Assembly (NCBI RefSeq): GCF_007747215.1
Contig: NZ_CP036273.1
Span: 1,160,322-1,224,321, forward strand
From: Urbifossiella limnaea
Lineage (GTDB): Bacteria; Planctomycetota; Planctomycetia; Gemmatales; Gemmataceae
Direction of reading: 5' to 3'
Length of the DNA: 64,000 nt
Within the stretch, counting starts at the first letter, position 1; every line of letters begins with the position of its first letter. The notes beneath the pieces are model-generated. The model had not been told where the DNA came from. It worked only from the letters and a program-made list of their open reading frames with translations, and made no database searches. A program made the translations under genes and the position numbers. Of this stretch, positions 39,977-55,263 are shown in pieces.

Positions 39977-42175
39977 TCATCGTGTTCGTCCCTTCGGCCG
40001 CTTCGCGGGCCGCGGCGCCGGCGCTGGGGCCGGCGCAGCCGGGTCCGCGGGCCCCAGCGCCGGGCGTCCCGCCTGCTCCGCCAGCTCCAGGTAGCGCACC
40101 TGGCTCCGCAGCGGCGCCTCGCCCTCGGCCGGCTTCACCCGCCGGTAGGTGCCGTCCGGCAGCAGCTCGCGGGCCTTCACGTTGTCCGCCAGCGTCGTCT
40201 TCAGAATCTCGTCGATCACCCGCGCCTTCAGGTCCGGCTGCTCGATCGGGAACACCACCTCCACGCGGCGGCTCAGGTTGCGGTCCATCCAGTCGGCGCT
40301 GCCGGTGAACACCTCCGGGCTGCCGTCGTTCTCGAAGTAGAAGATGCGGCTGTGCTCCAGGAACCGGTCCACCACCGACGTGACGCGGATCGTCTCGCTC
40401 ACGCCCGGCAGGCCCGGCCGCAGCGCACAGATGCCGCGGCACACGAGGTGAATCGGCACCCCGGCCTGGCTCGCCTTGTACAGCGCCTTCACGACCGCCG
40501 GTTCGAGCAGGCCGTTGAGCTTGGCGAGGATGCGCGCCGGCTTCCCGGCCGCGGCGTTCGCCGCCTCGCGCTCGATCTTCTCGATCATCGACGCCTGCAA
40601 CCGGCTCGGGGCCACGATCAGCTTCCGCCACTGCGGCAGCTCGGCGTACCCGGTCAGGTAGTTGAACAAGGCCGACACGTCGTCCGCGAAGTCGGGGTTG
40701 GCGGTGAAGAAGCCCAGGTCGGTGTAGATGCGGGCGGTCGTCGGGTTGTAGTTGCCGGTGGCCAGGTGGACGTAGCGGCGGATGGTGTTGTCCTCCTCGC
40801 GCCGCACCACCAGCGCCACCTTGCAGTGCGTCTTCAGCCCGACGAACCCGAACACCACGTGCACGCCGCTCTTCTCCAGCTCCTTCGCCCACAGGATGTT
40901 CCGCTCCTCGTCCAGCCGGGCCTTCAGCTCGATGACCGCGGTGACCTGCTTGCCGCGGTCGGCGGCCCGCTGCAGCGCCCGCACGACCGGCGAGTCGGAA
41001 CTGGTGCGGTAGAGCGTCTGCTTGATGGCGAGGACGCGGTCGTCTGCGGCCGCGGCCTCGATGAAGTCCACGACGTGCGCGAACGACTCGTACGGGTGGT
41101 GGACGAGGATGTCGCGGCCGCGCACCGCCGCCCACGGGCTGAGCGCCTGCGCGAACGCGGCCACCTGGGCCGGCACGAACGGCGGGTCGCGCAGGTCGGG
41201 GAAGCCCGGCAGGCCGTACACCTGGAACAGGCCGGTGAGGTCGAGCAGGCCGCGGACCGGGTACACGTCCTCGGGGTCGAGGTCGAGCGCGCTGGTGAGG
41301 AACTGTTCCAGGTCGGGGGGGGCGCCGGCTTCGATTTCGAGCCGCACCGCGTGCCCGCGGCGGCGGGCCTTCACCTGGGCCTCGATCGCCTGCAGCAGGT
41401 CGTCCACGCCTTCGTCGTCGATCTCGTACTCGCTGTCGCGGGTGACGCGGAAGCACACGGCCTCGCCGAGTTCCATGCCGGGGAACAGGTCCGACAGCTG
41501 GGCCTTGATGACGGCTTCGAGCGGCGCGAGGACGTGGAGCGGGCCGCTGGTGCCGTTGCGGGCGGGGTTGCCGCTGGGCAGCGGCACGAACCGCGGCAGC
41601 ACGGCCGGCACCTGCACCACGGCGTACAGCGGGTCGGCGTCGCCCGGCCGGCGGACGGTGACGGCGAGGTTCAGCGACTTGTTCAGCAGGTGCGGGAACG
41701 GGTGAGCGGGGTCGGTGGCCAGCGGCGTGAGCACCGGGAAGATTTCGCGGCGGAACAGTTCGCGGGCGTGCTTCAGGTCGTCGCCGGTGAGCGGCTCGGC
41801 CCAGCGGATGACGACGCCCTTCGCCTCCAGCGCCGGCAGCACCTCGTCCTTGAGGACGCGGTACAGGGCGGCGGTCATGTCGCGGACGGCGGCGGCGATC
41901 TTCTCGGCCTGCACGACCGGCGGCGTACGGTCGGCGCCACTTCCCTGCGGGACGCCGGCCGCGACCTTCTGCTGGAGCCCGCCGACGCGGACCATGAAGA
42001 ACTCGTCCAGGTTGGCGCTGAAGATGGCGAGGAACTTCAAGCGCTCGAGCAGCGGGACGGTCGGGTCCTGGGCTTCTTCGAGGACGCGGCGGTTGAACTG
42101 GAGCCAGCTCAGCTCGCGGTTGAGGTACAACGACGGGTCGTCGAGGTTGGCGGGGGCGGCGGGGGTCGCGGACAT
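39977..42175 (-). CDS. ppk: polyphosphate kinase 1
   Basis: NRELSWLQFNRRVLEEA, FLAIFSANLDEFFMVR, and the PLD-like HxK region (VGLKTHCKVALVVRRE). 732 aa. Confidence 0.9.
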   Translation of the reverse strand: MSATPAAPANLDDPSLYLNRELSWLQFNRRVLEEAQDPTVPLLERLKFLAIFSANLDEFFMVRVGGLQQKVAAGVPQGSGADRTPPVVQAEKIAAAVRDMTAALYRVLKDEVLPALEAKGVVIRWAEPLTGDDLKHARELFRREIFPVLTPLATDPAHPFPHLLNKSLNLAVTVRRPGDADPLYAVVQVPAVLPRFVPLPSGNPARNGTSGPLHVLAPLEAVIKAQLSDLFPGMELGEAVCFRVTRDSEYEIDDEGVDDLLQAIEAQVKARRRGHAVRLEIEAGAPPDLEQFLTSALDLDPEDVYPVRGLLDLTGLFQVYGLPGFPDLRDPPFVPAQVAAFAQALSPWAAVRGRDILVHHPYESFAHVVDFIEAAAADDRVLAIKQTLYRTSSDSPVVRALQRAADRGKQVTAVIELKARLDEERNILWAKELEKSGVHVVFGFVGLKTHCKVALVVRREEDNTIRRYVHLATGNYNPTTARIYTDLGFFTANPDFADDVSALFNYLTGYAELPQWRKLIVAPSRLQASMIEKIEREAANAAAGKPARILAKLNGLLEPAVVKALYKASQAGVPIHLVCRGICALRPGLPGVSETIRVTSVVDRFLEHSRIFYFENDGSPEVFTGSADWMDRNLSRRVEVVFPIEQPDLKARVIDEILKTTLADNVKARELLPDGTYRRVKPAEGEAPLRSQVRYLELAEQAGRPALGPADPAAPAPAPAPRPAKRPKGRTR

Positions 42176-42310
42176 CGGGAATCCTTCGCGGCGCCGGTCG
42201 GCGGGCTAACGGGATAATGTACGCCCGGCGGCCGGCGGCGGCGAGGCGGGCCGGGCGATCGGGAATGGCTCTCCCCGTTCGCGCGCCCCCTCGCCTCTGC
42301 CCCGTCCTCG

Positions 42311-45300
42311 TCACTCTTTCCGGTCCACGGTGACGATCACCCGCAGCCCGTCCTCCTCGAAGCGGATGACGCCGGTCAGCCCGCCGAACGACTTCAGCAG
42401 CCGGCCGGTGCTGCTCGCCGCGGTCGGGCCGGTCGGCTGGCGCGGGTCGTCGTGCCCGCCGTGGACCGAACACCGGCACGCCCGGCCGTCGGCCGCCAGC
42501 TCGTAGGCGCCGCCGTCCGGGCAGAACGGCCGCTCGCCGTACACGCGGCCGACACGGCCCAGTAGCTCGGCCGGCGGCGCCCCGACTGCGGGCCGACGGT
42601 CGTTCCACCCGCGGTTCACGTTGGCGAGCATGTCGAGGTTGGCGTGGCACGCGGCCCGGCTTCCCTCGGCCCAGCCGAGGTTGTAGCCCGGCAGCACCGC
42701 GTTCCAGTTCTCCGGCCGGAGGCGCAGCACCGCGTGCGCCGGCTCCGTCCGCGGCGGCCGGTTGCCCGCCGCGTGCGCCGCCGCGATGTCCTCCAGGATG
42801 AACGGCCGCGTCGTGACGTACAGCCCGTCGCCGATGCGGCCCCAGTAGACGCGCAGCTTCAGCCCCGCGAACGACACCACGGCGCAGCGGATCGTGTGCG
42901 GGGCGGGGAAGGGCACGCGGTAGAAGTCGACGTCGCGCCGCCACTCCAGCCCGGTGCCGGTCAGCTGCGACCGCGCGGTCAGGAACAACTTGTCGAGCTC
43001 GCCGAGGTACTCGTCCACCACCTTCGCGTCGCGCACCGGGACGGAGATCGACGACGCCCCGAACACGAACCGCACGCCGAGGCCGAGCGACGTGAGGCCC
43101 GCCCCCTGGCCACCGCCGAACAGGCCCGACAGGTCCGTGTCGAGCAGCCGCGGGGCGTCGTGCATGTGGAAGCCGACGTGGTCGCCGATGCCGTCGCGGA
43201 GGAAGCGGCGGAGCTTGTTCAGGTCGACGCCCGCCGCCTCCAGTTCCTGCAAGTCGTGCGGCGCGAGGCGGAACTCGCGCAGCAGGCCCGGCAGCCACGG
43301 CCCCTGCGGCTGTGCCAGCTCGTCGCCCGGCCCGAGGGTCACCTCCTCGTCGCCGGCCGGCGAGACCAGCGCCGCGAACGTCTTCGGGTCGAGCCGCGGC
43401 GACAGCCGCTTCGTCGACCCGTCGGCCATGACCACGTCGATCGCCTCGGCGCCGGGCACGACCACGCCCTTGAGCGGGTCGGCCGGGTCGAACGGCAGGT
43501 CGTCGGGCTTCGTCCACACCACTGCCCGCGCCGGGTCGGCGGCCACCGCCAGCACGGTGTTCGCGGTGCCGTCGGTAATGTCGGCGAGCGTGACCTTGGC
43601 GCGGCCCGGCGGCGACAGCGTGTTCTTCCCCGCCGGCACGACGAACGTGGTCTTGCCGGCGGCGACGAGCGCCGGGTCGTTCGGGTGGTACAGGCGCGGC
43701 ATCTTGTCGATGAGCTTCTTGTTGTCCGGCGAGTCCCACGGCTCGTCGAGCTTGAACTGCCGGTACAGCGCGTCCTGCTCGATGTACGGCAGGATGGCCA
43801 CGCGCCAGCTCAGCAGTGCCTTGCCGCCGGGGCCGCGGACGTTCGTCGTGGGGAACTTCGCGTTGGCACTCTCGTAGTTCAGCACGGCGAGGCCAATCTG
43901 CCGCAGGTCGTTGTGGACCTCGAACGGCGGCTTCGGCCCGGCGGGCTGCGGCTGCTGCGGCGTGTCGTCCAGGGTGCCCGGCCGGCCGTCGCCCGGGTCG
44001 AACGCGCGGAGCAGCTCGCCCGGATCGACTTTCGGCGGCACCACGCGGACGCTGCCGTCGGCGAGGAGGGCGATGAACCCGTTGCCGTCCGGCCGCGTCA
44101 GCCCGCGGAGCGGCTGCTTGGAATCGACCGTCAGGTCGGCCGGCCGGCTCCACTCCACGGCGGCGCCGGTCGCCTCCACCGCCAGCACCGTGTTCGACGT
44201 GCCGTCGGTGAAGTCGGTGAGCTTCAGCGCCCGGCCGCCCGGCGGGAACGCCGTCCCCTTGCCGGCGGGGCGGACGTAGGGCGTCTTCCCGGCGGCGACC
44301 GGCGGCCGGCCGGCGAACACCCGCGGCATCTTGTCGAGCAGCGGCTTGTTGTTCGGCGAGTCCCACGACTCGTCGAGCTTGAACTGGCGGTACAGCGCCT
44401 CCTGCTCGACGTACGGCAGGATGGCCACCCGCCAGCTCAGCAGCGCCTTGCCGTCCTTGTCGCGGATGTCGTCCGGCAGCTTCTGGAAGGCGTCGAGGTA
44501 GACGTGGAACGCGAGGCCGATCTGCTTGAAATCGTTCGTCGCCTGCGTCCGCTCGGCCGCCCCGCGGATGCCCACCGGCCGCGCGGCCGGGGCGCCGGGC
44601 GCCGGGTTTTTCGCCGGCTGGTCCGGCCCCAGGATGTCGAGCATCTGCCGCTTCGGCAGGTGGACCCACACGCCGCCGAGCTCGCGGCGCGGCGTCGGCA
44701 GCAGGTCCATCGGCGCCGGCGGGCCGGCGCCGCGCGCCAGCTCGGTGTAAATCGAGTTGTCGATCAGCGGCAGCACCAGCGTTTCGAGCCGGTACTGCTT
44801 CGGCGTCAGCGTCAGCCGCACCGCGATCGGGTCGAAGAACGTCCGCCAGTACTGGCTGTAGTCGGCCACGAACCCGCGGTACTCGTCGGCCTCGGCGGCG
44901 GTCACCTCGGTCACCAGCCGCTCGACGCACGGGGTCATCGCCTCCACCCGGCCGAACCGCGAGCAGACGCCGGACATGCCGTCGGGCGACAGCGAGTACG
45001 TGCCGCCGTCCGGGTGGGCGAGTTCGCCGCGGCCGAACACGCCGGGGGCGCAGTTCGTCTCCGCGAGTTCCTCCAGCGACCGCGGCGCCCGGCCGTGCTC
45101 GGTGCGGAACAACAGCGCCGCGTGGCCGATCATGCGGAGGTGGTTGTACGCCATCACCCGCCGCCGCTCGGTCAGCTTCAGCTGCGGGCCGGTCAGCCGG
45201 CGGATGAAGGCGTCGGACAGGTAGACGAAGCCGTCCTCGTCGGCGCCGCGGGCCATGCGGGTGCGGACGTACTTGAACTCGGCCGTGTCGCCGAGCCGGC

Positions 45301-46360
45301 GGGCGGGGCGGCCGTCGGCGGTCTTGCCGGCGATCGTTTCGAGGACGCGCCTGAACGCCGGCAGCGAGTTGCCGCGGACGTGCAGGTCGGGCCGCGGGCT
45401 GGCGGAGTACACGTTCACCGCGCCGTCGGGCGTGGTGCGGTGGCTGAACGCCACGCCGACGTGCTCGCCCTTCGCCTCGCCGCCGCCGAGCAGCCCCGCG
45501 AGGGTGCCGAGATTCCGGCCGTGGACGAGGACCGTCACGTCGCTCCCTTCGAGCAGGAACGGGTCGCTGCCGGTGACGGCGATGGCGTCGACGCCGAGCT
45601 TGTCGATGGCCTCGGGGGTGAAGGCGCCGAGGCCGAGCTGCTTGCGGATGCGGTCGGCCGTCTGCTGCGAGCGGGCGCCGCCGAGCGCCTGCGTGAGGAT
45701 GTGGCCGGACCACAGCTCCCCGGCGCCGAGCACCTCGTGCAGGCGGACGGCGGAGCGGCACTCGGCGAGGTAGTACTCTTCCGGCACGAGCCCGGCGAGC
45801 GGCCCCACGTCGGGCGTCTTGCCGCCGAGCAACTTCTCCCACGGGTGGCTCGGCTGCGTCGGCCCGGCCAGCGTGCTGACGGCCACCTTGCCCTTCGCCG
45901 GCTCCTTCGGCTCCGGGGTGCCCGGTCGGCGCGGCCGGTTGGGGTCGGGCTCGCCGCGCATGGTGTCGAGTTGCAGGGTCTCCTGGACGGCGAGGGCGCC
46001 GGTGAAGGTGGAGAACAGGTCGGCCCGCGCCCGCCGGCCGCCGTCGCCGAAGAGGTCGCGGAGGCGGTTCGGCGGGTCGACGGCGTTCTGCGCCTCCTGC
46101 AACCGGCCGTCGCGGCGGCCGAGCTGGAGGACGACGTACTGGAGGTACGTGTCGCGCGGCGACAGCGCGAGGCGGTCGCGGGCCTCGTCGAACGTCCACG
46201 CGGCACCGTCGGCCTTCGGCGGGGGCTGGCCGACGACGCTCGCCGGCCGCAACAGGGCGACGACGGCGAGCACGAACGCCGCCTCGACCGCGACCGCGGC
46301 CGCGAACGCGACCCCGGGCAGGGCGGCCCGGCAGCCGCGGGCGAGCAGGTACACGCTCAT
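42311..46360 (-). CDS. 1349-aa membrane-anchored protein with two tandem DUF1559-like modules
   Basis: N-terminal TM (AFAAAVAVEAAFVLAVVALL). Two internal 190-aa repeats, each with FKQIGLAxxY...ALLSWRVAILPY(V/I)EQ(E/D)ALYRQFKLDE(S/P)WDSP(N/D)NK...DGT(S/A)NTVLAV. These signatures are otherwise found in Planctomycete DUF1559 (pilin-like H-X9-DG) proteins. Confidence 0.7.
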   Translation of the reverse strand: MSVYLLARGCRAALPGVAFAAAVAVEAAFVLAVVALLRPASVVGQPPPKADGAAWTFDEARDRLALSPRDTYLQYVVLQLGRRDGRLQEAQNAVDPPNRLRDLFGDGGRRARADLFSTFTGALAVQETLQLDTMRGEPDPNRPRRPGTPEPKEPAKGKVAVSTLAGPTQPSHPWEKLLGGKTPDVGPLAGLVPEEYYLAECRSAVRLHEVLGAGELWSGHILTQALGGARSQQTADRIRKQLGLGAFTPEAIDKLGVDAIAVTGSDPFLLEGSDVTVLVHGRNLGTLAGLLGGGEAKGEHVGVAFSHRTTPDGAVNVYSASPRPDLHVRGNSLPAFRRVLETIAGKTADGRPARRLGDTAEFKYVRTRMARGADEDGFVYLSDAFIRRLTGPQLKLTERRRVMAYNHLRMIGHAALLFRTEHGRAPRSLEELAETNCAPGVFGRGELAHPDGGTYSLSPDGMSGVCSRFGRVEAMTPCVERLVTEVTAAEADEYRGFVADYSQYWRTFFDPIAVRLTLTPKQYRLETLVLPLIDNSIYTELARGAGPPAPMDLLPTPRRELGGVWVHLPKRQMLDILGPDQPAKNPAPGAPAARPVGIRGAAERTQATNDFKQIGLAFHVYLDAFQKLPDDIRDKDGKALLSWRVAILPYVEQEALYRQFKLDESWDSPNNKPLLDKMPRVFAGRPPVAAGKTPYVRPAGKGTAFPPGGRALKLTDFTDGTSNTVLAVEATGAAVEWSRPADLTVDSKQPLRGLTRPDGNGFIALLADGSVRVVPPKVDPGELLRAFDPGDGRPGTLDDTPQQPQPAGPKPPFEVHNDLRQIGLAVLNYESANAKFPTTNVRGPGGKALLSWRVAILPYIEQDALYRQFKLDEPWDSPDNKKLIDKMPRLYHPNDPALVAAGKTTFVVPAGKNTLSPPGRAKVTLADITDGTANTVLAVAADPARAVVWTKPDDLPFDPADPLKGVVVPGAEAIDVVMADGSTKRLSPRLDPKTFAALVSPAGDEEVTLGPGDELAQPQGPWLPGLLREFRLAPHDLQELEAAGVDLNKLRRFLRDGIGDHVGFHMHDAPRLLDTDLSGLFGGGQGAGLTSLGLGVRFVFGASSISVPVRDAKVVDEYLGELDKLFLTARSQLTGTGLEWRRDVDFYRVPFPAPHTIRCAVVSFAGLKLRVYWGRIGDGLYVTTRPFILEDIAAAHAAGNRPPRTEPAHAVLRLRPENWNAVLPGYNLGWAEGSRAACHANLDMLANVNRGWNDRRPAVGAPPAELLGRVGRVYGERPFCPDGGAYELAADGRACRCSVHGGHDDPRQPTGPTAASSTGRLLKSFGGLTGVIRFEEDGLRVIVTVDRKE

Positions 46361-46383
46361 CGGGAACCCTCCGGGGTGGTGAG

Positions 46384-48153
46384 TCAGGGCCGCGCGTCGA
46401 GCCGCGCCCAGTGGTCGTTCGAGTCGGCGGGCGAGAGCGGGCGGGCGTGGCGGCGCAGCTCCCAGACCGCGGCGCCGTCGCCGGACGCGACCACCAGCGA
46501 GCGGCTGTCGGCGGTGAAGGCCACCGCCGCCGGCTCCGCGGGCAGGTCGAGCGAGAAGCGGTCGGCCGCCGCCGCCACGTCCCACAGGCGGACGGCCTTC
46601 CCGTCGCGGTAAGCGAGGGTGCGGCCGTCGGGGGCGAGCGCGAACCACGACACCGCGGTCCGCGCCGTGGCGACGCGGGCCACCTCGCGGCCGGAGCCGG
46701 CGTCGAGCAGCAGTACGGTGTTGTCGGCGGCGACGGCGAGCGTGCGGCCAGTCGCGTGGTACTCGACGGCGTACGCCCCGCCGCGCAGGCCGCCGAACAC
46801 GCGGGCGGCACCCGTCGTCACGTTCCAGACGCGCACCGACTGGTCGCCGCCGGCCGACGCCAGCTCGCGGCCGTCGGGCGCGAACGACAGCCCCCACACG
46901 GACCGGCTGTGCCCGTCGAGGGTGCGGACGGCGCGGCCCGTCTTCGCGTCCCAGAGGCGGACGCGGCCGTCCTCGCCGCCGGTCGCCACGAGCGTACCGT
47001 CCGGCGAGAAGGCGGCCGCCCGCGCCGCGCCGCCGTGCCCGGCGAGCGTGTGCCGCAGGGCGCCGGTTGCGGCGTCCCAGACGCGCACGTCGCCGTCGTA
47101 GCCGGCCGCGGCGAGCAGCTTGCCGCCGGGGGCGAACACGACCGCCGAGCCGCCGCCGGGGAAGGCGCACTTCGCCACTGCGGTCCCGTCCGCCTTCCAG
47201 ACGCGCACCTCCGCCCCCGGGCCGACCGTGGCTAACGACCCGGCGGACGCCGCGACGGCCAGCACCGCGGAGCCGTGCGCCAGCCGCACCGGCTCCGCGA
47301 CCACGGCCGGCGCGCGAGGCGCGTCCGGCGGCGGTGGTTGCCGGTCGAGCGCGAGCACGCCGCCGACCACGGCCAGCCCGACGACCGCGGCGAGCGGCCA
47401 GCCCCAGCCGAGCCGCGGTTCCACTGCGAGCGTTGCTACCGCCGGCGTCACCGTCCCGCCGACGGCCGCGAGCGTGACGCGCGCCAACTCGGCCGGCACC
47501 GCGACCGCGGCGCGGGCGCTCAGGAGCGTGGTCAGCCCCGCGACGGAGCAGCCGACGCCGCGGCGGGCCAGGCGGTCGCGTAGTAGCGCCTTCGCCCGCG
47601 CCAGCCGGCCGTTCACCGTGCCTTCCGGCCAGCCGAGCAGCCGGGCGGCCTCCTCGCGGGAGCGGCCCTCGACGCAGCACAGCACGACGGGGTCGCGGTA
47701 GCGCGCCCCGAGGCGGTCGAGTTCGCCGTCGAGCACGGCGGCGATGTCGTCCCAGTCGTCGGCGGCAGGGGTGTCGGTGGGTCGCATCAGGGCGGCCTTT
47801 CTCTCGCGGGCGCGCCGGCGGGCCTCGCGGGTCCGGGCCTTCAGCGCCACCCGCACGGCGGTGCCGTGGAGCCACCCGGCGACGGACCGCACCCCGCGCA
47901 GCGCGGCCGCCCGGCGCGACAGGACCAGGAACACGGCCTGGAAGGCGTCGTCGGCGTCGGCCGCGTTGCCGAGCAGCCGCCGGCACACGCCGAGGACCAT
48001 CCGCCCGTGCCGGGCCAGCAGCTGGGCGAAGTCGGCTTCGCCGTGCGTGGCGGCGAACGCGGCGAGGAGTTCGCCGTCGGTGGGGCCGTCGGCGGCGCCG
48101 GGGGCGAGCCGGCCCCACAGGAGCTGTGCCGCGGTCGTGCGGTCGGTGGCCAT
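46384..48153 (-). CDS. ECF (sigma-70 family) sigma factor fused to a TM segment and C-terminal WD40 beta-propeller
   Basis: Sigma region 2 (DADDAFQAVFLVL) and region 4 HTH (VLCCVEGRSREEAARLLGWPEGTVNGRLARAKALL). TM helix WPLAAVVGLAVVGGVLAL. Then at least six WD-like repeats (VRVWDAATG, VRLWDAKTG, VRVWNVTTG, VRLWDV...). Confidence 0.8.
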   Translation of the reverse strand: MATDRTTAAQLLWGRLAPGAADGPTDGELLAAFAATHGEADFAQLLARHGRMVLGVCRRLLGNAADADDAFQAVFLVLSRRAAALRGVRSVAGWLHGTAVRVALKARTREARRRARERKAALMRPTDTPAADDWDDIAAVLDGELDRLGARYRDPVVLCCVEGRSREEAARLLGWPEGTVNGRLARAKALLRDRLARRGVGCSVAGLTTLLSARAAVAVPAELARVTLAAVGGTVTPAVATLAVEPRLGWGWPLAAVVGLAVVGGVLALDRQPPPPDAPRAPAVVAEPVRLAHGSAVLAVAASAGSLATVGPGAEVRVWKADGTAVAKCAFPGGGSAVVFAPGGKLLAAAGYDGDVRVWDAATGALRHTLAGHGGAARAAAFSPDGTLVATGGEDGRVRLWDAKTGRAVRTLDGHSRSVWGLSFAPDGRELASAGGDQSVRVWNVTTGAARVFGGLRGGAYAVEYHATGRTLAVAADNTVLLLDAGSGREVARVATARTAVSWFALAPDGRTLAYRDGKAVRLWDVAAAADRFSLDLPAEPAAVAFTADSRSLVVASGDGAAVWELRRHARPLSPADSNDHWARLDARP

Positions 48154-48261
48154 CGCCCCTCCCCGTGGTGCCCGCCAGGATGTGCCCGCCGCCCGGCTGC
48201 GGCGTACAGAATATTCCGAAGTTTTTCCCGCGGCGCGAACGGCTTGGCGCCGCTGCGATGC

Positions 48262-53545: not shown

Positions 53546-55006
53546 TTACTTCTTGCCGCCGCCGTTGCCCCACGGGCCGGCCTTGCTGCGGTCGGCCTTC
53601 TCGGCGGTCCTCTCCTCGCGGGCCGGCCGGGCGTCCGGCCCGCCGCCCTTGCCCGTCATCCCCGGGCCGCCGCCGGTGCCGCCGAAGCCGGGGAAGCCGC
53701 CCTTGCCGCCGCCGCCACCGGCCATCGACCCGCCCTTGCTGCGCCCGCTGCCGGCCTCCGGCGTCTCGCCGTTCTGGATGGCGATCAGCCGGTCCACTTC
53801 GGCCTTCGTGGCGGTCACGCGGATCAGCTCCAGCGGGGCGATGAAGCCGTCCTCGTTGGCGTCGAGTTCGCGGAACTCCGCGACCGTCTTCCCGCCGACG
53901 GACCGCCACTCGTACATGTTGATCTGCCCGTCCTTGTCCTGGTCGTACTCGGCGAACCAGTCCGGCAGGCCGGGCGGGAGCTTGCCGTAGCGGATGCCGA
54001 CGTTCGAGAAGTCGTCCTTCTTCTCCTCGCGGCGGCCGCCGAACCCGCCGGGGCCGCCGAACCCGCCGCCCTCACCGGTGCCGCGGAAGTCGTTCCCGAA
54101 CTGCGGCTGGCCGGTGCCGCCGCCGCCGGCGAGGCGGAGTTGCAGCGACTTGTACTCGTCCAGGCTGACGAACCCGTCGCGGTTGGTGTCGTAGTCGTTC
54201 CACATGCCCCGGGTCCGCTCGGAGGCCTCGTCCGGGGATAGCTTCCCGTCGCCGTCGCGGTCGCCCATCTTGAACCGCCGCTCGATCTCCTCCTCGGACG
54301 AGCCGCCCTTCCCGCCGAAGCCCTGCCCGCCGAACCCGCCCTGCTGCATCGGGAAGCCACCCTGCTGGCCGAAGCCGGGCTGGCCGAAGCCGGGCTGCCC
54401 GCCGGGCTGACCGAAGCCCTGCTGCCCGCCGGGCTGCCCGCCGCTCATCTTGGCGCGGGCCAACTCCTGGTTGCGGGTGGCGAACTGGAGGAACTGGTCC
54501 TTGGTCATCACCCCGGACTCGGGGTACGGCTGCGTCCCCATCCGGTCCGAGATCATCTTGCTCATCGCCCGGGTGTCGGGGGAGATGCGGCTGAAGTCGA
54601 CATAATCGGTGCCGCCGGTTTGCTGGAGCAGTGTGGTCCACTGGCTCTCGGGGTCGAAGCCGCCGCGCCGGCCACCACCGCCGCCGCCCTGGGGAAAGCC
54701 GCCCCCACCCTGGGGAAAGCCGCCGCCGGGCTGTTGGAAGCCGCCGCCTTGGGGGAAGCCGCCTCCGCCTTGGGGGACGCCGCCGCCGGGTTGAATCTGC
54801 ATCCGGAAGCCGCCTCCGCCTTGGGGGAAGCCGCCCCCACCTTGCGGGAAGCCACCGCCGCCCTGGGGGAAGCCGCCTCCGCCCTGCGGGAAGCCACCGA
54901 AGCCACCCTTGCCGCCCTTACCGCCGCCGGGCTGGCCGGCGATCGGACCCATGGTGAACAACAGCATTCCGAGGACGAAAAACGCCCCGCTGACGCGCGC
55001 GCACAT
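53546..55006 (-). CDS. secreted EF-hand domain protein with Gly-rich GGGGFPQ repeats
   Basis: Signal peptide. Four canonical EF-hand loops (DRDGDGKLSPDE, DTNRDGFVSLDE, DQDKDGQINMYE, DANEDGFIAPLE). N-terminal (GGGGFPQ)n and GQPGFGQ repeats encoded by 21-bp tandem DNA repeats around 54650-54900. Confidence 0.7.
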   Translation of the reverse strand: MCARVSGAFFVLGMLLFTMGPIAGQPGGGKGGKGGFGGFPQGGGGFPQGGGGFPQGGGGFPQGGGGFRMQIQPGGGVPQGGGGFPQGGGFQQPGGGFPQGGGGFPQGGGGGGRRGGFDPESQWTTLLQQTGGTDYVDFSRISPDTRAMSKMISDRMGTQPYPESGVMTKDQFLQFATRNQELARAKMSGGQPGGQQGFGQPGGQPGFGQPGFGQQGGFPMQQGGFGGQGFGGKGGSSEEEIERRFKMGDRDGDGKLSPDEASERTRGMWNDYDTNRDGFVSLDEYKSLQLRLAGGGGTGQPQFGNDFRGTGEGGGFGGPGGFGGRREEKKDDFSNVGIRYGKLPPGLPDWFAEYDQDKDGQINMYEWRSVGGKTVAEFRELDANEDGFIAPLELIRVTATKAEVDRLIAIQNGETPEAGSGRSKGGSMAGGGGGKGGFPGFGGTGGGPGMTGKGGGPDARPAREERTAEKADRSKAGPWGNGGGKK

Positions 55007-55263
55007 GGCCGACCCTCCGGGGCGCACAGCCCCTACTCACGATCCTAAACTCCATCCCCCGCCGCGTCACGACGAATTGGCGCGAGTCTCATAGGAGTTT
55101 CAGAACCGCGACGGCTCGCACCGCCGCAAGCGGCGGCAGCGGTTGTGCGACCCGCGCCGGGGAGCTGCGAGCTCTGCGTCGGCCTTCCGCTTTGCTTCAC
55201 ATTCGCCGGTCCGGTAAAGTGGAGTATTCTGCCCGCCGCGACCGCACCTCCGGAGAAACTCCC

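Follow-up and report, generated by a model that had tools for sequence, protein, structure and literature searches.

We analysed a window of 64,000 nt from Urbifossiella limnaea (Planctomycetota; Gemmataceae; contig NZ_CP036273.1, positions 1,160,322 to 1,224,321 of the forward strand), in which two adjacent genes on the minus strand encode an extracytoplasmic function (ECF) sigma factor fused to a transmembrane (TM) helix and a WD40 beta-propeller and, directly downstream, a protein of 1349 residues that carries two tandem DUF1559 modules (Table 1). Both products are exact matches to database entries: the 589-residue sigma factor is QDU19084.1, under the generic label “sigma-70 family RNA polymerase sigma factor”, and the large protein is QDU19083.1, labelled “DUF1559 family PulG-like putative transporter”. 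In nine loci, the sigma-WD40 gene directly precedes the large gene; the large proteins of these loci are ~68-93% identical to that of the window, and the flanking genes are unrelated between lineages. A bipartite promoter-like block ahead of the sigma gene is conserved as well.

Table 1. Features of the gene pair and its upstream region, listed in the direction of transcription (window coordinates)
Feature	Position	Strand	Basis or remark
Bipartite promoter-like block TGTAC[G/T]CC-N8-GCGGCGGGCAC	48182..48208	-	Conserved; 28 nt before sigma ATG
ECF sigma factor with C-terminal TM helix and WD40 propeller, 589 aa	46384..48153	-	U. limnaea QDU19084.1
Sigma region 2, residues 45-113, including invariant Cys57	47815..48021	-	Pfam PF04542
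Sigma region 4, residues 144-191, including invariant Cys159	47581..47724	-	Pfam PF08281
Single predicted TM helix, residues 248-272, then Pro-rich linker	47338..47412	-	Hydropathy
WD40 beta-propeller, ~7 blades, residues ~290-575	46429..47286	-	Pfam and repeat signatures
Intergenic spacer, 23 nt, with Shine-Dalgarno sequence GGAGGGTTC	46361..46383	-	Shine-Dalgarno sequence kept in orthologous loci
Exported multidomain protein, 1349 aa	42311..46360	-	U. limnaea QDU19083.1
N-terminal hydrophobic leader, residues 1-45; signal peptide, possibly signal anchor	46226..46360	-	Hydropathy and orthologs
Scaffold N-domain, residues ~55-575	44636..46198	-	Conserved; no Pfam model
DUF1559-like module 1, residues 609-780	44021..44536	-	PF07596 and self-alignment
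DUF1559-like module 2, residues 817-992	43385..43912	-	PF07596 and self-alignment
Scaffold C-domain, residues ~1000-1349	42314..43363	-	Conserved; no Pfam model

An earlier reading of this DNA, made without database searches (the sequence-only reading), had proposed that the first product combines an intact ECF sigma factor (regions 2 and 4) with a TM helix and a C-terminal WD40 domain, and Pfam matches and hydropathy bear this out. Sigma70_r2 scores 40.1 bits against a cut-off of 24 and Sigma70_r4_2 scores 40.3 bits against 25.7 (Pfam); the linker between the two regions is 30 residues long and regions 3 and 1 are absent, the arrangement that defines an ECF sigma factor. TIGR02937 (sigma70-ECF) scores 57.1 against a cut-off of 42.9 (NCBIfam), the core matches the solved ECF sigma factors SigE, CnrH, SigH, and SigW in the PDB, and Cys57 and Cys159 are invariant across eight orthologs. 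By hydropathy, residues 248-272 are the top hydrophobic segment of the protein; a second TM helix at residues 226-244 was considered and rejected, the hydrophobicity there being weaker and orthologs having Q, D, and P at these positions. The predicted topology places the sigma core inside and the WD40 domain outside the cytoplasmic membrane. The WD40 model scores 115 bits, and many beta-propeller models match across residues ~292-529 (Pfam); six VRxW[DNKE] signatures at ~41-residue spacing, together with one degenerate repeat, point to a propeller of seven blades. This domain is 71-93% identical among orthologs, a conservation equal to that of the sigma domain. We found no Pfam or NCBIfam match to an anti-sigma domain in the 589 residues, and just ~50 residues lie between sigma region 4 and the TM helix.

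The nearest homologs of the sigma core are Gemmataceae ECF sigma factors of 400-500 residues with varied C-terminal extensions (PSCyt2, SnoaL/DUF4440, Poly_export, Secretin_N, and WD40). Some sigma-WD40 orthologs (L085:3244-5487, L088:2718-4967, L121:2920-5172, and the P0005 locus) are longer, at 747-755 residues, and have an extra C-terminal HEAT-like tail of ~150 residues (EVRERASRELG..., PEVRQRAEQLL) that is absent from the 589-602-residue sigma factors of the window, L002, L084, L091, and L119.

The large protein lies directly downstream on the same strand, as the sequence-only reading had it, and the two tandem DUF1559 modules recognized there are confirmed by profile search and alignment, at positions offset by ~250 nt from the 43100-44300 first proposed. 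The modules are 56% identical to each other (E 7e-64; hhalign profile-profile E 8e-103). PF07596 (DUF1559) matches the whole protein in two stretches with 163.8 bits and, on the isolated modules, scores 94.1 and 88.3 bits against a gathering cut-off of 23.3, spanning profile positions ~3-180 of 268 (Pfam). No N_methyl (PF07963, TIGR02532) or other prepilin model matches the whole protein or the modules at E<=1, in agreement with the earlier statement that a prepilin-type leader is missing, and neither does the NCBIfam H-X9-DG model (TIGR04294) at the same threshold; the DGS of that motif is kept in the modules (ALLADGS, VVMADGS), and the residue 10 positions upstream is not His. The N-domain contains a pilin-like helix (YNHLRMIGHAALLFRTEHGRAP) and a hairpin motif (HPDGGTYSLSPDG..C), and the C-domain contains a second hairpin motif (CPDGGAYELAADG.C.CSVHG). 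A confident AlphaFold2 model of residues 150-1349 (pLDDT 84.5, pTM 0.63) places the modules between low-confidence linkers. The description of this product as a TM-anchored giant membrane protein is doubtful: its sole hydrophobic stretch by hydropathy is N-terminal (residues 12-45), and its orthologs have short, ordinary Sec-type signal peptides (e.g., MSVRLFARGCGVLLPALAVAIAHG followed by QPP). On this sequence evidence, export via a signal peptide is more likely than a membrane-spanning arrangement.

The two genes are separated by 23 nt, one fewer than the 24 bp first reported. The spacer (CTCACCACCCCGGAGGGTTCCCG) has GGAGGG 8 nt before the ATG of the large gene, and we found no terminator-like or sigma-70-like promoter site on the minus strand between the genes. 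Outside the window, the pair is present in the Gemmataceae metagenome-assembled genome STL-PLA24 (L002; large protein 93% identical, gap of 19 nt), L084 (79%, 4-nt overlap), L088 (73%, 33 nt), the P0005 locus (69%, 88 nt), and L085 (L085/L130; 69%, 513 nt); three further pairs on metagenome contigs were found via the upstream motif (L091 with a 4-nt overlap, L119 with 317 nt, and L121 with 22 nt). Six of the nine loci thus have a spacing of -4 to 33 nt; the P0005 locus has 88 nt, and L119 and L085 have 317 and 513 nt. The sigma orthologs are 93, 79, and 69% identical, in step with the 93, 79, and 69% of their partners. The partner in L121 has one module, which makes the pairing independent of module duplication.

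Judging by the loci compared, the pairing is a lineage-specific acquisition of one Gemmataceae sub-lineage that has since been maintained, since it is kept in close relatives and absent from more distant members of the family. Conservation of the gene pair across Gemmataceae had been named as a check; it holds for the nine loci with their unrelated flanks, within the one sub-lineage. The two widest gaps (L119:4745-5061 and L085:5488-6000) are palindromic insertions resembling miniature inverted-repeat transposable elements or repetitive extragenic palindromes, with long terminal inverted repeats (CCCTCACCCCGCGTGCTTCGCCGCGACCCTCTCCCC...) in L119 and two copies of GGTGTTACGGGGGTAACACCTGCC in L085; the Shine-Dalgarno sequence GGAGGGTTC is kept in both. 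At two loci without a sigma partner, WD40 proteins that lack a sigma domain adjoin the large gene: a WD40-caspase protein of 1135 residues at L009:2133-5540 (minus strand) and a WD40 protein of 1024 residues at L086:6135-9209 (plus strand). Their WD40 domains are merely ~25-35% identical to that of the sigma factor, and these neighbours are probably a coincidence, WD40 proteins being abundant in Gemmataceae.

The promoter-like block ahead of the sigma gene, TGTAC[G/T]CC-N8-GCGGCGGGCAC, is preceded by an A/T-rich stretch and is exact in nine of nine loci with DNA, 28-32 nt before the ATG, in upstream sequence that is otherwise unalignable; these nine are eight loci with both genes plus L104, where the contig ends inside the sigma gene, and do not include the P0005 locus. 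At 0 mismatches the block is unique within the window. Scanning the metagenome contigs with the exact motif gave 51 matches, 5 of them upstream of sigma orthologs; the remaining 46 fall within unrelated coding sequence of high GC content and were treated as chance. A structured RNA was considered and rejected: RNAalifold detected no compensatory substitutions and returned an unfavourable covariation term, a result consistent with a protein-binding site. The geometry of the block, roughly cTGTAC-N16-GGGCAC with ~25 nt to the start codon including the Shine-Dalgarno sequence, fits an ECF-type promoter, and we regard it as a candidate autoregulated ECF promoter, its promoter function being predicted. 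Autoregulation is usual among ECF sigma factors, and their genes usually lie together with those of regulators or targets (PMC7826278).

The family to which the 1349-residue protein truly belongs is an unnamed scaffold of N and C domains, and DUF1559 is an insert in it, since members without a module exist in which the N and C domains are conserved. A search over 5.8 billion proteins gave 620 matches to the large protein, and the best 120 of these share a conserved architecture that aligns as a signal peptide, an N-domain of ~520 residues, one or two DUF1559 modules, and a C-domain of ~350 residues. The window protein has the family hallmarks in both its N-domain (YWRTFFDP, ETLVLPLIDNSIY, and LKLTERRR..YNHLRMIGHA) and its C-domain (CPDGGxY..C.CS.HG and a terminal EDGL..V.T..R; alignments A1 and A3). 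A genome scan with an N-domain-only profile gave 181 loci, of which we kept 80, from Planctomycetota and, unexpectedly, many from Acidobacteriota (Pyrinomonadaceae and Blastocatellia). These 80 loci have zero, one, or two modules: the zero-module form, in which the C-domain directly follows the N-domain, accounts for all Acidobacteriota loci and many Planctomycetota loci, and the two-module form is limited to one Gemmataceae subgroup. An exhaustive search with the N-domain profile reached 2,510 cluster representatives, and for 1,324 of these the match was at E<=1e-30.

P0041, a family member without modules, has zero Pfam matches and a confident AlphaFold2 model (pLDDT 83.6, pTM 0.82), in which the point of module insertion coincides exactly with a predicted disordered linker (residues 562-581). 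A neighbour-joining tree of the modules, computed with no bootstrap, suggests one old duplication in the clade of the window, secondary loss of module 1 in the one-module relatives P0012, P0013, P0016, and P0020, and an independent duplication in P0024. In the distant homolog P0114 (alignment A1, columns ~190-400), an extra DUF1559-like module is located near the N-terminus, outside the N-C linker, and this different site points to independent insertion events. The N and C domains have in common a hairpin motif of 26 residues, [H/C]PDGGxYxLsxDG..C.CS.HG (hhalign probability 96%). A shared origin of the scaffold helix and that of DUF1559 was considered and rejected, the sequence similarity being just marginal (hhalign E 0.006, probability 6%). 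A family-profile sequence search of solved structures in the PDB gave zero matches, and Foldseek found none there below E 0.03.

All-vs-all clustering of neighbouring open reading frames (ORFs) at ~80 loci gave no partner gene shared across Planctomycetota, and synteny solely among closely related Acidobacteriota. Module-free genes (L013-L083; e.g., L032:7334-9223, L048:4420-6033, and L026:5656-6135) are common in Pyrinomonadaceae and Blastocatellia, where a GWxTD-domain gene lies just before the scaffold gene on the same strand, with TatC and TatA genes further upstream. A link to the type II secretion or type IV pilus machinery was rejected: such genes adjoin the homolog in L003 only. There (L003:12658-20071), genes for three T2SSE ATPases, a T2SSF platform protein, and an N_methyl prepilin come after that of P0031, a homolog with two modules (49% identity).

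Each of the two proteins can be set beside known systems. The ECF01-Gob group was reportedly described by Jogler et al. in 2012 and is said to have been merged into ECF57 by Casas-Pastor et al. in 2021; we know of no characterised member of ECF57/ECF01-Gob, and of no conserved partner gene reported for the group in the accessible literature. ECF01-Gob is the name for ECF sigma factors with a C-terminal extension specific to Gemmata-type planctomycetes (PMC5766207, PMC4937300). ECF57 is enriched to ~5.3 copies per planctomycetal genome (PMC7826278); its extension has WD40-like repeats, two conserved Cys may link sigma2 and sigma4, and activation by protein interaction has been proposed (PMC8999054). 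Like this group, the window sigma factor is planctomycetal, consists of a sigma2-sigma4 core with a long C-terminal WD40-like extension, has no cognate anti-sigma factor, and belongs to a set of many paralogs per genome; Cys57 in sigma2 and Cys159 in sigma4 agree with the description of the group. By these described features, the sigma-TM-WD40 fusion is of a known, uncharacterised kind, ECF01-Gob/ECF57. Unlike in ECF57 as described, both a downstream gene and an upstream motif are conserved in the ortholog subgroup of the window.

Sigma/anti-sigma fusions that are released by regulated proteolysis, such as IutY of P. putida (ECF243) and SCO4117 (ECF52) (PMC8999054), offer a second comparison. 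The window sigma factor resembles these in joining an ECF core, a TM segment, and a predicted extracytoplasmic sensory domain in a single chain, and differs in that its sensor is a WD40 propeller and no FecR-like or zinc-finger anti-sigma domain is present. With no anti-sigma domain detectable, the likening of the protein to a single-chain sigma/anti-sigma sensor in the sequence-only reading is only an analogy. By the same analogy, site-1/site-2 proteolysis is a plausible activation route for the tethered sigma factor (PMC8999054).

The DUF1559 proteins of P. limnophila number 68, two of them essential, and form its largest paralog family (PMC10632474); R. baltica has 74 copies, some of them stress-responsive (PMC2754498). 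DUF1559 proteins of the prepilin type have an N-terminal cleavage/methylation leader and a hydrophobic alpha1-N; the 1349-residue protein has neither, retains the DUF1559 core with the His of H-X9-DG not conserved, and holds its modules internally, in tandem, and embedded in an exported scaffold. Internal, leaderless, and embedded, the modules cannot polymerise as pilins do. Compared with TP0453 of Treponema pallidum and the Mog1/PsbP-like envelope proteins (TiME, the PknH sensor domain, LpqN, and DcrB), identity is <=12%, the match covers one scaffold sub-domain only, and the 1349-residue protein has no lipobox; functional inference from this likeness is insecure.

We hold it to be roughly an even call that the pair is a lineage-specific two-gene operon of Urbifossiella and its close Gemmataceae relatives in which the large protein is the co-expressed output or partner of the sigma factor. 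In such an operon, the first gene would supply an ECF01-Gob/ECF57-type sigma factor whose cytoplasmic sigma2-sigma4 core is tethered to the membrane by one TM helix and whose seven-bladed WD40 propeller would face the periplasm as a protein-binding sensor. The second gene, predicted to be co-transcribed from 23 nt downstream and translated from its own Shine-Dalgarno sequence, would encode an envelope protein of ~140 kDa, exported by the Sec route and based on an ancient N+C scaffold, which may consist of Mog1/PsbP/TP0453-like alpha/beta sandwiches and pilin-like helix-hairpin elements; the two leaderless DUF1559 pilin-head modules would have arisen by insertion into the disordered linker between its domains and by tandem duplication. 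A periplasmic signal on the WD40 domain might activate the sigma factor by proteolytic release or conformational change, the active factor would then transcribe from the TGTAC..GCGGCGGGCAC element upstream of its own gene, and the exported protein would thereby be co-induced as output. It may also bind the propeller; any such contact, and any signalling to or from the large protein, is putative. The sequence-only reading had likened the pair to a dedicated signalling/output module; the pair is indeed tightly spaced and conserved, with parallel divergence and a promoter-like block, and the sigma fusion in it is of a type already described.

Several observations weigh against a functional operon. 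The sigma ortholog is not adjacent in the two-module homologs L007, L009, L010, L086, and L087 (56-68% identity), nor in L001 (Limnoglobus roseus), L003, and the other genome loci, ~60 of which have >=2 kb of upstream sequence; with the pair absent from most of the family, any coupling would be of recent date and one that the family can do without. Gemmataceae have ECF57-type and WD40 genes in great abundance, and occasional adjacency by chance is therefore to be expected. The 317-513-nt insertions at two paired loci could uncouple transcription. The upstream motif is never found ahead of a non-sigma gene in the window and the metagenome contigs, and gives no independent evidence of a regulon. 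The sigma-WD40 topology is read from hydropathy alone.

These observations leave some room for the two genes being neighbours with no functional coupling, an explanation that we consider rather unlikely: an ECF57-type paralog would have landed beside the large gene in one ancestor and stayed there by descent, controlling other genes while the large protein is expressed independently. The absence of the pair from the distant loci, the ~5.3 ECF57 copies in a planctomycetal genome (PMC7826278), the unrelated WD40 proteins beside the large gene in L009 and L086, and the repeat insertions that split the genes in L119 and L085 all accord with it. Against it, adjacency persists down to 68-69% protein identity while all flanking genes change, six loci show overlap or spacing of <=33 nt, the Shine-Dalgarno sequence of the second gene is conserved, and the stretch between the two genes showed neither a terminator nor a promoter-like motif.

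Improbable in our judgement is a reversal of roles, by which the large protein would regulate the sigma factor as an exported co-sensor or anti-sigma-like ligand on the WD40 domain, keeping it inactive until displaced or degraded. RseB and MucB are periplasmic partners in sigma-E systems and supply the analogy; the RseB/MucB matches that we obtained are marginal, within a broad alpha/beta fold class, and the family has ~2,500 clusters with no such sigma partner in any more distant locus examined. We reject as extremely improbable the notion that the large gene encodes a pseudopilin of the usual DUF1559 type or is two pseudopilin genes wrongly joined, in line with the earlier denial of pseudopilin status: the PF07596 score of the whole protein and its NCBI label favour it, but the prepilin leader and any N_methyl or H-X9-DG match are missing, the modules are internal and make up only ~350 of the 1349 residues, the flanking conserved N and C domains occur also without any module, and the full-length architecture is kept in >100 homologs (among the best 120 of the 620 matches).

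The two-gene operon could also be taken further, in a form that we think has little chance of being right: the WD40 propeller would directly bind the co-encoded exported protein, giving a self-contained envelope-surveillance circuit, a design for cell-surface signalling that has neither a FecR-type anti-sigma factor nor a TonB-dependent receptor, and the partner would represent a new class of leaderless, single-chain “poly-pilin-like” envelope proteins. If this were true, the class would comprise ~2,500 clusters in Planctomycetota and Acidobacteriota, and its DUF1559 heads might interact with the large families of pseudopilin paralogs in Planctomycetes.

Each component of the pair is either known or already carries a generic annotation; the novelty lies in the conserved pairing, in the candidate promoter, and in the placing of the large protein in an unnamed two-phylum family with a mobile DUF1559 insert. 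We regard this as a moderate finding, an experimental handle rather than a surprise. WD40-extended ECF sigma factors were predicted in 2012 and are among the most abundant ECF sigma factors of Planctomycetes; to our knowledge, no signal, target, or partner has been reported for them in the searchable literature. In several planctomycetes, DUF1559 proteins form the largest of all paralog families, and their function, too, is a question that the pair makes approachable. The conserved putative operon, which links one ECF-WD40 ortholog group to an exported protein with DUF1559 heads, offers three leads that bring both the ECF-WD40 and the DUF1559 question within reach of experiment: a promoter that may be the target, a gene product that may be target or partner, and Urbifossiella limnaea (strain ETA_A1) as a host in culture. 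Genetic tools for the phylum have been described (PMC11958385). Many “DUF1559 domain-containing proteins” of 900-1400 residues belong to the separate unnamed family, which spans two phyla and has zero, one, or two mobile modules.

The window as a whole is ~73% G+C and rich in spurious ORFs, and third-position GC picks out a run of minus-strand genes. The pair is bordered by polyphosphate kinase at one end and, at the other, by a membrane protein that has no Pfam match, with DUF2459, ADP-ribosylglycohydrolase, and other genes beyond the membrane protein. There is no match to zf-HC2, RskA, or FecR among the neighbours of the pair, and no cognate anti-sigma factor nearby. A gap of 135 nt (42176-42310, minus strand) lies between the large gene and polyphosphate kinase (39977-42175), whose adjacency is kept only in the 93%-identical L002, so that polyphosphate kinase is not part of the unit. 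Further away, at 53546-55027 (minus strand), the window encodes a protein of 493 residues with several EF-hand motifs and long Gly-rich GGGGFPQ repeats, and L002 has a syntenic EF-hand gene as its counterpart.

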